Position numbers and translations under genes: made by a program. Below the pieces are notes generated by a model. That model worked only from the letters and a program-made list of their open reading frames with translations. It did no database searches and was not told the DNA's origin. 64,000 nucleotides of DNA from Escherichia coli (GTDB taxonomy: Bacteria; Pseudomonadota; Gammaproteobacteria; Enterobacterales; Enterobacteriaceae): the NCBI RefSeq assembly GCF_002854065.1, contig NZ_CP024147.1; one strand, given 5' to 3'. This document shows, one piece after another, positions 1,740 through 4,372 of the stretch (its first letter is position 1; every line of letters starts with the position of its first letter).

Positions 1740-2515
1740 TGATTGTTTTACCCAGACGCCTGTCAGACGAGGTTGCCGATCGTGTGCGGGCGCTGATTGA
1801 TGAAAAAAACCTGGAAGCGGGCATGAAGTTGCCCGCTGAGCGCCAACTGGCGATGCAACTCGGCGTATCACGTAATTCACTGCGCGAGGCACTGGCAAAA
1901 CTGGTGAGCGAAGGCGTGCTGCTCAGTCGACGCGGCGGCGGGACGTTTATTCGCTGGCGTCATGACACATGGTCGGAGCAAAACATCGTCCAGCCGCTAA
2001 AAACGCTGATGGCCGATGATCCGGATTACAGTTTCGATATTCTGGAAGCCCGCTACGCCATTGAAGCCAGCACCGCATGGCATGCGGCAATGCGCGCCAC
2101 ACCTGGCGACAAAGAAAAGATTCAGCTTTGCTTTGAAGCAACGCTCAGCGAAGACCCGGATATCGCCTCACAAGCGGACGTTCGTTTTCATCTGGCGATT
2201 GCCGAAGCCTCACATAACATCGTGCTGCTGCAAACCATGCGCGGTTTCTTCGATGTCCTGCAATCCTCAGTGAAGCATAGCCGTCAGCGGATGTATCTGG
2301 TGCCACCGGTTTTTTCACAACTGACCGAACAACATCAGGCTGTCATTGACGCCATTTTTGCTGGTGATGCCGACGGGGCGCGTAAAGCAATGATGGCGCA
2401 CCTTAGTTTTGTTCACACCACCATGAAACGATTCGATGAAGATCAGGCTCGCCACGCACGGATTACCCGCCTGCCCGGTGAGCATAATGAGCATTCGAGG
2501 GAGAAAAACGCATGA
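1739..2515 (+). CDS. lldR: GntR/FadR-family transcriptional regulator of the L-lactate operon
   Basis: ORF track 1724..2515; N-terminal HTH ([22 protein letters not shown]); start placed at Met 1739 overlapping the lldP stop (TAATG). Confidence 0.93.
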
Positions 2516-3702
2516 TTATTTCCGCAGCCAGCGATTATCGCGCCGCAGCGCAACGCATTCTGCCGCCGTTCCTGTTCCACTATATGGATGGGGGTGCATA
2601 TTCTGAATACACGCTGCGCCGCAACGTGGAAGATTTGTCAGAAGTGGCGCTGCGCCAGCGTATTCTGAAAAACATGTCCGACTTAAGCCTGGAAACGACG
2701 CTGTTTAATGAGAAATTGTCGATGCCGGTGGCGCTAGGTCCGGTAGGTTTGTGTGGCATGTATGCGCGACGCGGCGAAGTTCAGGCAGCCAAAGCGGCGG
2801 ATGCGCATGGCATTCCGTTTACTCTCTCGACGGTTTCCGTTTGCCCGATTGAAGAAGTCGCGCCAGCCATCAAGCGCCCAATGTGGTTCCAGCTTTATGT
2901 ACTGCGCGATCGCGGCTTTATGCGTAACGCGCTGGAGCGAGCAAAAGCAGCGGGTTGTTCGACGCTGGTTTTCACCGTGGATATGCCGACACCGGGAGCG
3001 CGTTATCGTGATGCGCATTCTGGAATGAGCGGCCCGAACGCGGCAATGCGCCGCTATTTGCAGGCGGTGACGCATCCGCAATGGGCGTGGGATGTGGGCC
3101 TGAACGGTCGTCCGCATGATTTAGGAAATATTTCGGCTTACCTCGGCAAACCGACCGGACTGGAAGATTACATCGGCTGGCTGGGGAATAACTTCGATCC
3201 GTCCATCTCATGGAAAGACCTTGAGTGGATCCGCGATTTCTGGGATGGCCCGATGGTGATCAAAGGGATCCTCGATCCGGAAGATGCGCGCGATGCAGTA
3301 CGTTTTGGTGCTGATGGGATTGTAGTTTCTAACCACGGTGGCCGCCAGTTGGACGGTGTACTCTCTTCCGCTCGTGCGTTGCCCGCTATTGCAGATGCGG
3401 TGAAAGGTGATATAGCCATTCTGGCGGATAGCGGAATTCGTAACGGGCTTGATGTCGTGCGTATGATTGCGCTCGGTGCCGACACCGTACTGCTGGGTCG
3501 TGCTTTCTTGTATGCGCTGGCAACAGCTGGCCAGGCGGGTGTAGCTAACCTGCTAAATCTGATCGAAAAAGAGATGAAAGTGGCGATGACGCTGACTGGC
3601 GCGAAATCGATCAGCGAAATTACGCAAGATTCGCTGGTGCAGGGGCTGGGTAAAGAGTTGCCTGCGGCACTGGCTCCCATGGCGAAAGGGAATGCGGCAT
3701 AG
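2512..3702 (+). CDS. lldD: FMN-dependent L-lactate dehydrogenase
   Basis: ORF track 2512..3702 (396 aa); alpha-hydroxy-acid dehydrogenase family translation; ATGA overlap with lldR; operon context. Confidence 0.96.
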
Positions 3703-3705
3703 TCG

Positions 3706-3860
3706 TTTGCGCCCCCTCACCCTAACCCTCTCCCTCAGGGAGAGGGGAACGTTCGGCGCTGTATGTACTCCCTCACTCTGAAACGACACCGCACTCTTTT
3801 TTTCTCCCTCGCCCCTCTGGGGAGAGGCCGGGGTGAGGGGAAAAGGCCGCACGGCTCACC
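3706..3860. repeat. Cluster of GC-rich imperfect palindromic repeat units (boxC-like; family name from memory, uncertain)
   Basis: Units gccccctcaccctaaccctctccctcagggagagggg (3710..3746) and ctccctcgcccctctggggagaggccggggtgagggg (about 3806..3842); internal hairpin ccctctccc-tca-gggagaggg; ccctcaccc in unit 1 is the reverse complement of gggtgaggg in unit 2. Confidence 0.5.
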
Positions 3861-3898
3861 AATTTTCTGCTATCCTGCCCCCGCACTAAGGGGGCAGT

Positions 3899-4372
3899 AT
3901 GCTAAACATCGTACTTTACGAACCAGAAATTCCGCCAAATACTGGCAACATCATCCGTCTTTGCGCTAATACCGGCTTTCGTCTGCATATCATCGAACCG
4001 ATGGGATTTGCCTGGGACGATAAGCGCCTGCGCCGCGCAGGGCTGGACTATCACGAATTTACCGCCGTTACGCGTCATCATGACTATCGCGCGTTCCTCG
4101 AAGCAGAAAATCCCCAACGGCTGTTTGCCCTTACGACCAAAGGTACGCCCGCACATAGCGCCGTAAGCTATCAGGATGGCGACTATCTGATGTTTGGCCC
4201 GGAAACGCGCGGCCTGCCAGCGAGCATTCTTGATGCCCTGCCCGCTGAACAAAAAATTCGTATTCCAATGGTGCCGGACAGCCGCAGCATGAACCTGTCC
4301 AATGCGGTGTCGGTGGTGGTGTATGAAGCCTGGCGCCAGCTGGGGTATCCGGGAGCGGTGTTGAGAGATTAG
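3899..4372 (+). CDS. trmL: tRNA (cytidine/uridine-2'-O)-methyltransferase, SpoU/TrmH family
   Basis: ORF track 3899..4372 (157 aa); [27 protein letters not shown] matches recalled TrmL (YibK). Confidence 0.95.

Follow-up and report, generated by a model that had tools for sequence, protein, structure and literature searches.

A divergent pair of BoxC repeat units between lldD and trmL in Escherichia coli, and the lldD mRNA 3' end beside its left hairpin

In the stretch of Escherichia coli DNA analyzed here (64,000 nucleotides, hereafter the window), the spacer between lldD and trmL almost certainly consists largely of a divergent (head-to-head) pair of BoxC repeat units, with a type A unit on the minus strand followed by a type B unit on the plus strand. 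The explanation that best accounts for the evidence as a whole, and which we hold with high confidence, is that of a dispensable BoxC pair whose left hairpin is located at the 3' end of the lldD mRNA. The BoxC element and its presence at the lldD-trmL locus are already known, having been published under three names, and the one new point relative to published BoxC work is the position of the lldD 3' end next to the left BoxC hairpin. Published 3'-end data thus bear on the role of BoxC in RNA, and the earlier BoxC papers did not use them. The finding is of little weight in other respects, as the element, the family and the locus are in the literature and half of the E. coli strains are without the full pair.

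The two BoxC units and their family

The window includes a segment with lldP-lldR-lldD, followed by trmL and then by cysE on the minus strand. According to the open reading frame list and the RefSeq annotation of matching genomes, the lldD coding sequence occupies 2512-3702 on the plus strand, with its TAG stop codon at 3700-3702, and the same two sources place trmL at 3899-4372, also on the plus strand. The spacer between the lldD stop (3702) and the trmL start (3899) therefore spans 3703-3898 (196 bp). At its left end it reads TCGTTTGCGCC-CCCTCACCC-TAA-CCCTCTCCC-TCA-GGGAGAGGG-G..., and toward the right it reads ...TTTTTTTCT-CCCTCGCCC-CTCTG-GGGAGAGG-CC-GGGGTGAGGG-GAAAAGGCCGCAC. The GC-rich palindromes in this spacer were found to represent two repeat units in inverted orientation, and all of the motifs that a first-pass annotation of this DNA had named for two such units are present where it had placed them. 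Specifically, CCCTCACCC is found at 3714-3722 and its complement GGGTGAGGG at 3831-3839, while CCCTCTCCC at 3726-3734 pairs with AGGGAGAGGG at 3737-3746 and GGGAGAGG is found at 3820-3827. Counting both strands, CCCTCACCC occurs at 3 sites in the window as compared to 0.31 expected from shuffles. The same annotation had described the repeats as filling almost the whole spacer, which overstated their extent; the two units with their conserved flanks and a unique centre of approximately 23 nt cover roughly 3703-3852 (approximately 150 of the 196 bp), and 3853-3898 represents the putative trmL promoter and leader.

The left unit is of type A, with TTA as its second loop, and is the orthologue of K-12 TMECO 17. 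Including flanks that are conserved among 11 type-A copies, it spans 3703-3766 on the minus strand, where its 5' flank is ACATACAGCGCCGAACGTTC and its 3' flank is GGCGCAAACGA. Its core (3714-3746, minus strand) conforms in full to the TMECO pattern defined by Holder et al. (2015), CCCTCNCCC N3-6 GGGNGAGGG N3 GGGNGAGGG, and reads CCCTCTCCC TGA GGGAGAGGG TTA GGGTGAGGG; this is the one match to the strict pattern in the window, with 0.00 expected. The right unit, the orthologue of K-12 TMECO 18, is of type B, with CCG as its second loop, and spans 3790-3852 on the plus strand as judged from an alignment of 6 type-B copies, with CGCACTCTTTTTTTCT as 5' flank and GAAAAGGCCGCAC as 3' flank. A slightly relaxed pattern was needed to recover its core (3806-3839, plus strand), which reads CCCTCGCCC CTCTG GGGAGAGG CC GGGGTGAGGG. 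Because of a G deleted at 3825, this core is one G shorter than its K-12 orthologue, which matches the pattern; the right unit of the window falls outside the TMECO pattern in its strict form and is left with only three runs of at least three G, so that the canonical four-tract quadruplex is lost. This deletion is one of four differences between the spacer of the window and that of K-12, the others being substitutions at 3749 (A/C), 3818 (T/C) and 3853 (G/T).

The flank alignment leaves a locus-specific centre of approximately 23 nt (3767-3789) between the two units. A longer central stretch of 58 nt (3748-3805) is found only at lldD-trmL, at one place in each of 2714 of 5426 genomes, and the idea that it represents a further repeat (e.g., an RSA-like one) was rejected, as it is single-copy and confined to this locus. 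Since the 5' flanks of both units are conserved, most of this 58-nt stretch is made up of unit flanks and only the approximately 23 nt are specific to the locus.

The two units had been proposed both to fold singly and to pair with each other as a long-range inverted repeat. Pairing between the units is well founded, as the outer arms at 3713-3722 and 3831-3840 are inverted repeats with 10 of 10 positions complementary, those at 3727-3734 and 3820-3827 are complementary at 8 of 8 positions, and long-range pairing is part of the minimum-energy structure of the whole spacer RNA. With folding tools that model Watson-Crick pairs only, this RNA folds at -86.3 kcal/mol (z = -3.71), with 0 of 200 shuffles as good, and the minus strand folds at -91.8 kcal/mol (z = -3.76); the folding energy of the spacer is thus not the unremarkable one that the first-pass annotation had named as a point against its proposal. 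Folding of single units held for one of the two. The left unit, whose local arms (3726-3735 and 3737-3746) are complementary at 10 of 10 positions, gives a convincing fold on its own (-26.1 kcal/mol, z = -2.9), whereas the fold of the right unit is unremarkable for its composition (-29.1 kcal/mol, z = -1.4).

BoxC, PIT and TMECO are names for one element, which was named BoxC in the 1990s and was found again as PIT, for potential intrastrand triplex, by Hoyne and Maher, the name TMECO having been given to it by Holder et al. (2015, PMC4666352). BoxC is a GC-rich, non-coding element of approximately 56 bp with approximately 20 copies per E. coli genome, and each copy combines a Watson-Crick hairpin with a third block through which an intrastrand triplex can form in vitro. 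Table 1 of Holder et al. lists TMECO 17 at K-12 positions 3,781,061-3,781,028 on the minus strand (antisense, type A) and TMECO 18 at 3,781,121-3,781,156 on the plus strand (sense, type B mm). As lldD ends at 3,781,017 and trmL starts at 3,781,215 in NC_000913.3, these two are the orthologues of the units in the window, and the exact pattern match together with the published listing of these orthologues bears out the family name BoxC given at first pass. Both K-12 sites between lldD and trmL have also been reported as HPGQ 43 and 44, which are G-quadruplex/hairpin motifs (Kaplan et al. 2016, PMC5100583); the HPG1 and HPG2 motifs of that study represent another structural reading of the same repeat at the same two sites.

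Holder et al. (2015, PMC4666352) counted 23 TMECO copies in K-12 and found that every paired K-12 locus combines one type A and one type B unit in inverted orientation. The lldD-trmL pair obeys this rule, with the TTA loop on the minus strand and the CCG loop on the plus strand, and agrees with BoxC/PIT/TMECO in pattern, in A and B loop types, in inverted A and B pairing, in its intergenic site, in copy number and in K-12 coordinates. It is, however, the only divergent one of the five K-12 pairs (minus and then plus, 59 nt apart); the other four are convergent, with type B on the plus strand followed by type A on the minus strand, and have linkers of 15-27 nt, three of these four sharing a common conserved linker of 26-27 nt.

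A search with a 36-nt consensus of the unit found it in 5413 of 5426 complete E. coli genomes, at a median of 18 places per genome (range 1 to 32). The unit is therefore not unique in the genome, uniqueness having been the other point that the first-pass annotation had named against its proposal. A total of 349 of these places are on plasmids, and all of the matches listed are in unannotated intergenic sequence. One K-12 BoxC copy lies within the CP4-6 prophage. The literature on BoxC, PIT and TMECO includes Bergler (1992), Bachellier (1990s), and Hoyne and Maher (2000 and 2002). A mention of "boxC" in the HusR paper proved to be a spurious match.

Alignment of the flanks of 17 copies, consisting of the two window units and fifteen copies from eleven other K-12 loci, showed that type A copies share approximately 20 nt on the side of the C-stem (...GCGCnCnATCGGTC), that type B copies share GCAC..TTTTC(T/C) within a conserved 5' flank of approximately 12-16 nt, and that both types have a short GAAAAGGC-like tail. 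These conserved flanks lengthen the BoxC unit to approximately 55-60 nt, beyond the published core of 34-37 nt, which agrees with the BoxC of the older literature (56 bp and 32 copies, as quoted by Petrillo et al. 2008).

Alleles of the spacer and their history

A census of alleles, carried out with allele-specific queries against 5426 complete E. coli genomes, accounted for 5301 of these (97.7%). Two-unit alleles were found in 2714 genomes (50.0%), an empty spacer of 47 bp in 1468 (27.1%), an allele with the centre replaced by a 35-bp IS-end palindrome in 792 (14.6%), and a stump with only the last G-block in 327 (6.0%). The IS-end palindrome is from an IS4-family element, whose end is CTGTCTCTTGATCAGATCT. 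A deletion of 12 bp between CCGGGG...CCGGGG direct repeats, which makes the right unit a plain hairpin, was found in approximately a quarter of an evenly drawn genome sample of 20 rows, representing roughly half of the two-unit alleles in that sample. Counting the empty spacer, no fewer than five alleles of the locus thus exist in E. coli, and the pair behaves as a structurally unstable repeat. The census fits the instability reported by Holder et al. (PMC4666352), who described decay of this kind and local sequence instability at TMECO. The natural series of alleles (two-unit, 12-bp deletion, IS-end palindrome, stump and empty) is convenient for studies of instability and for strain typing, and the lldD-trmL spacer has previously served as a genotyping amplicon.

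The existence of empty and partial alleles in E. coli indicates that the BoxC pair is dispensable. As the pair is absent from lldD-trmL in 27% of genomes, it can have no indispensable function there, and since these genomes as well as E. albertii are without a unit, lldD mRNA does not need BoxC. An empty spacer was found in E. albertii and in the GTDB representative of E. coli. By comparison, Kluyvera genomosp. 1, Pseudocitrobacter faecalis, Superficieibacter electus and strain RIT691 carry one or more BoxC units in the same orientation, 2-11 nt past the lldD stop codon, and in Kluyvera and Pseudocitrobacter there is also a right-hand unit just upstream of the trmL promoter. Traces of the shared centre sequence are found in the loci of other genera. 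In Kosakonia, only a CTCTCCCC/GGGGAGAG hairpin is left, and several Enterobacter species have spacers of 36-59 bp without an intact unit.

These distributions bear on whether the pair could be a recent, MITE-like insertion, in which case the 47-bp empty spacer found in B2 strains and in E. albertii would be ancestral. Such a history, which we regard as unlikely, would agree with the presence/absence polymorphism and with an empty allele common to E. albertii and 27% of E. coli, and the family is multicopy, with 1 to 32 places per genome, copies on plasmids and the K-12 copy in CP4-6. However, comparison of filled and empty alleles revealed neither a target-site duplication nor a clean junction; instead, approximately 164 bp replace 15 bp, and even the last lldD codons differ, being GCGGCATAG in the filled allele and GCAGCTTAA in the empty allele, with Kluyvera showing the filled-allele form. 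Moreover, the centre is single-copy, which indicates that the composite is not a mobile unit. We know of no transposase that acts on BoxC, which also counts against an insertion of this type. In other genera, units are likewise found right behind the lldD stop codon, at the same position and with the same orientation, which favors an ancient origin or an exchange of alleles, accompanied by repeated decay. The locus may therefore be read, from these sequence comparisons, as an old BoxC site that has probably been decaying or exchanged repeatedly, rather than as a fresh insertion. A GGGTTAG motif in the empty allele was considered as a possible BoxC remnant, but is probably a coincidence because the filled allele has the motif on the other strand.

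The trmL side of the spacer

The repeat does not extend into the final 46 bp of the spacer (3853-3898), which are invariant in all alleles, including those that are free of repeats, and are conserved across genera. They include TGCTATCCT at 3868-3876 (plus strand), a candidate extended -10 element of a putative trmL promoter that is conserved in all alleles and genera. The primer used by Adams et al. to clone the trmL 5' UTR starts at GCACTAAGGGGGCAG, which suggests a transcription start near 3883. An inverted repeat, CTGCCCCC-GCACTAA-GGGGGCAG, is found at 3875-3897 on the plus strand; it overlaps the Shine-Dalgarno sequence of trmL and folds at -19.9 kcal/mol (z = -3.2). The possibility that this hairpin is a leader structure of trmL's own transcript was largely rejected, both because the 5'-UTR clone starts inside its loop and because variants found across genera break pairs without compensation. 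A K-12 RNA 3' end at 3,781,218, the second one at this locus in the Term-seq data of Adams et al. (2021), corresponds to position 3902 of the window and lies just past the inverted repeat. This end may reflect transcription that continues into trmL or premature termination of trmL's own transcript.

The proximity of the right unit to these elements raises the question of whether the units act as non-B DNA, i.e., as a triplex or a G-quadruplex/hairpin switch that would pause replication or regulate the trmL promoter. Approximately 16 bp separate the end of the right unit (3852) from the candidate extended -10 element downstream of it, and the 3' flank of this unit overlaps the -35 position of the trmL promoter. 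In addition, TMECO oligonucleotides have been shown to form stable triplexes in vitro and to stall polymerase in primer extension (PMC4666352), and an ion-dependent switch between G-quadruplex and hairpin has been reported for the same motifs (Kaplan et al. 2016, PMC5100583). These stable triplexes and G-quadruplexes were, however, seen only in single strands in vitro (PMC4666352, PMC5100583), and neither in vivo DMS footprinting nor CD and NMR of double-stranded DNA gave evidence for a triplex in duplex DNA (PMC4666352). According to the account of their work in PMC4666352, Maher's group found no effect on promoters. Furthermore, the loss of a G has taken the right unit of the window out of the triplex pattern and left it with three G-tracts only, and the trmL promoter and leader are identical in alleles without the unit. 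A role as non-B DNA is therefore quite improbable at this locus.

The lldD mRNA 3' end and the left hairpin

The mapping of the 3' end of the lldD transcript, put forward as a check at first pass, could be taken from published K-12 data. Term-seq of MG1655 grown in LB to an OD of 0.4 identified a "primary" lldD 3' end at 3,781,065(+) with a read count of 1018 (Adams et al. 2021, supplementary files 1 and 3). This K-12 end, which was called in only one of three growth conditions and with a modest read count, follows the left hairpin by 4 nt and would correspond to position 3750 (plus strand) in the strain of the window. In the lldD transcript, the left hairpin (3726-3746, plus strand) is a GC-rich stem of 9 bp, CCCUCUCCC UCA GGGAGAGGG, with a folding energy of -18.4 kcal/mol. 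Adams et al. (2021) reported a significant Rho-termination region for 3,781,065, with a Rho score of 1.49 and an intrinsic score of 1.32, where an intrinsic-terminator score of at least 3 suggests intrinsic termination. The Rho score at the lldD end is weak. Downstream of the mapped end, 3760-3815 (plus strand) represents a C-rich, G-poor stretch with 23 C and 6 G, including a run of seven T at 3797-3803, and is a candidate Rho-loading (rut-like) region.

The Term-seq data of Adams et al. (2021) show RNA 3' ends near further BoxC copies. The end at 164,636(+) is 5 nt past the hairpin of TMECO 2, that at 3,959,467(-) is found 6 nt beyond the TMECO 20 hairpin when the coordinates in Table 1 of Holder et al. 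are used, and that at 624,567(-) is 12 nt past TMECO 7. Three K-12 BoxC copies, with the lldD locus among them, thus have an end within 6 nt, as compared to approximately 0.09 expected under uniform placement (P ~1e-4), a crude null, given that 3' ends accumulate at stable intergenic hairpins in general. Searches of the Term-seq data by gene name (hrpB, tauD, zntA, frlR, alx and yjdP) found no primary 3' end at those BoxC loci, and searches by twelve coordinate prefixes, including 35048, 39085, 40704, 43143, 45498 and 4978, found none; several others gave unrelated coordinates only. As most of the BoxC loci queried had no catalogued 3' end, a generalization to the family is thin and rests on three to four sites.

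The first-pass annotation had suggested that the repeats act as a terminator or as an mRNA-stability element for lldPRD. The second part of this suggestion is plausible in so far as it places the element at the mRNA 3' end, given the end mapped 4 nt past the hairpin; the terminator part is not supported. That the BoxC pair is the Rho-independent (intrinsic) terminator of the lldPRD operon is very improbable, even though it has strong GC hairpins just past the stop codon, as intrinsic terminators do, contains the run of seven T, and adjoins the primary lldD 3' end at its left hairpin. The left hairpin is followed by GAACGUUCGG and not by a U-tract, and the T-run is upstream of the right hairpin rather than after a hairpin. 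The intrinsic score at the mapped end is below the published threshold, and a scan of 3400-4200 for promoters and terminators found no plus-strand hairpin with a U-tract and nothing else of relevance on that strand. Hoyne and Maher, as cited in PMC4666352, observed neither terminator nor promoter activity for PIT elements in reporter assays, and no effect on RNA polymerase. The further end at K-12 3,781,218 is also compatible with read-through past the pair, or could come from trmL's own promoter.

The left hairpin does resemble two other kinds of structure. In REP/BIME elements that stabilize mRNA 3' ends and in the stem-loops found at Rho-dependent ends, as at the left unit, a GC hairpin that is stable but lacks a U-tract is followed within a few nt by the RNA 3' end and then by C-rich sequence. 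BoxC is, unlike these, a different sequence family from REP/BIME, and its protective role would be extrapolated from three to four Term-seq sites. The palindromes having GC-richness and nothing more in common with chance GC-rich sequence or with another repeat family such as REP/BIME, an origin of that kind is excluded for practical purposes by a pattern that is observed with 0.00 expected in shuffles, by the approximately 18 BoxC copies per genome, and by the absence from 3703-3898 of any site within 2 mismatches of the REP (PU) consensus, approximated as GCCKGATGNCGRCGY. When 3400-4200 was compared with Rfam at a permissive E-value, no family reached its threshold, the best match scoring 16.9 bits (E = 0.17) against a gathering threshold of 37.

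It has been shown that Rho-dependent transcripts end just past stable stem-loops without a U-tract, with rut sites immediately downstream, and that such stem-loops protect against PNPase and RNase II (Dar and Sorek 2018). By analogy, transcription of lldPRD would run into the spacer, Rho would terminate it in or beyond the C-rich, G-poor region between the units, and 3'-to-5' exonucleases would then trim the transcript back to the 9-bp GC hairpin of the left unit, which as a barrier would fix and protect the lldD mRNA 3' end near 3750. The mapped end, the hairpin and the base composition are observations; from these published K-12 data and the sequence we infer the trimming and the protection. 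We give about even chances to the left hairpin being a structure that defines and protects the 3' end, as opposed to a terminator, and consider it rather doubtful that the hairpin has been selected for 3'-end protection.

For annotators, the lldD-trmL spacer should be taken neither for a terminator nor for a small RNA. If the left hairpin does define and protect the 3' end, the left unit would set the 3' end of the lldPRD mRNA, and strains with two-unit, stump and empty alleles would differ in the stability of lldD mRNA. Such a role would also explain why units have been kept at the same position and in the same orientation after lldD in several genera, and would provide a function for a repeat family that was left without one by three experimental studies. 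It is a tentative possibility that, next to REP, BoxC hairpins represent a second family of enterobacterial repeats to define and protect mRNA 3' ends downstream of Rho-dependent termination; the RNA ends found adjacent to BoxC copies suggest a REP-like protection of mRNA ends that can be tested.

Allelic variation in the lldD-trmL spacer

At window 3694-3702, the final two codons of lldD and its stop codon read GCG GCA TAG in the filled alleles, which carry two BoxC units in the lldD-trmL spacer, and the same nine nucleotides are found in Kluyvera. In the empty alleles, with a 47-bp spacer lacking a unit, the equivalent positions read GCA GCT TAA, as they also do in E. albertii. The two ends are synonymous, and the presence of three changes within 9 nt, directly adjoining the indel, hints at either an old divergence of the alleles or recombination at the lldD 3' end.

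The right unit (core 3806-3839, + strand) is itself variable. Compared with window 3817-3828, the AMA1167 allele (L003) has lost 12 bp (CCGGGGAGAGGG) between direct repeats, CCGGGG...CCGGGG, a deletion that turns the triplex-type right unit into a simple hairpin and that was found in approximately one quarter of genomes in an even sample (20 rows). Another allele, carried by 792 of the 5426 E. coli genomes, has a 35-bp palindrome, CTGTCTCTTGATCAGATCTCCTGATCAAGAGACAG, in place of the equivalent of window 3743-3818. Nucleotides 1-33 of this palindrome are identical to the 33 nt at the terminus of an IS4-family insertion sequence; nucleotides 1-19 match the IS50 inside end (palindrome and IS-end loci, outside the window: spacer of E. 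coli M6, L004 401-553; L100 2516-2548; L101 2518-2550). On plasmid pDETEC32, a second BoxC-like hairpin adjoins the same IS end at a near-identical spot (…CCCTCTCCCTGAGGG followed by CTGTCTC). BIMEs are a target of IS1397; taken together, the pDETEC32 junction and the lldD-trmL palindrome allele suggest that BoxC hairpins are, comparably, a target of this IS4-family element.

The trmL leader and RNA 3' ends at BoxC copies

Two elements between window positions 3868 and 3902 are the same in every E. coli allele and largely kept across genera. One is TGCTATCCT, a putative extended -10 element; the other is an inverted repeat, CTGCCCCC-N7-GGGGGCAG, which spans the trmL Shine-Dalgarno sequence. 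The trmL 5'-UTR clone of Adams 2021 starts at approximately 3883, inside the loop of this inverted repeat. The same study reported a K-12 Term-seq 3' end at 3,781,218 (equivalent to window 3902), 4 nt inside the trmL ORF, and, despite the Rho score of 3.68 at this position, the trmL fusion was unaffected by a rho mutant.

Three further K-12 BoxC hairpins have Term-seq 3' ends (Adams 2021) located 5, 6 and 12 nt downstream, at 164,636(+), 3,959,467(-) and 624,567(-), respectively. In the fepB leader, a very strong 3' end at 624,680(-), with >100,000 reads, is located 4 nt upstream of TMECO 8; the 164-kb and 624-kb sites fall within loci L089 and L090. At ppiC, the U-tract of the gene's own terminator hairpin is the TTTTCT flank of a type-B BoxC unit.

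Distribution of the BoxC family and composite pairs

BoxC units after lldD are also found outside Escherichia, in matching position and orientation. The Pseudocitrobacter faecalis spacer (L026 1266-1500) contains BoxC units and an internal tandem array with a half-unit of approximately 40 nt (…GTCCCCTCTCCCTCAGGGAGAAAACCCTCACCATGCACGACCT…), while the 271-bp spacer of Kluyvera genomosp. 1 (L030 1230-1500) contains both outer units.

In a family-wide search of E. coli genomes, 349 of approximately 87,900 consensus matches were on plasmids, and K-12 TMECO 3 is contained in the cryptic prophage CP4-6 (L093, K-12 281,901-282,336). These observations are at odds with the published claim that the motif has no association with plasmids, phages or transposons (Holder 2015, PMC4666352).

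Three of four convergent K-12 BoxC pairs, those in the fepB-entC (L090), ygfF-gcvP (L091) and alx-sstT (L092) spacers, have in common a linker of 26-27 nt, approximately GAACAGGCCGGCACTGGCGCGAATATTTA; the hrpB-mrcB pair (L089) has another linker, of approximately 16 nt. Judging from this sequence conservation, each of the three linker-sharing pairs may be a copy of the same composite repeat, approximately 130 bp long, and not two independent units.
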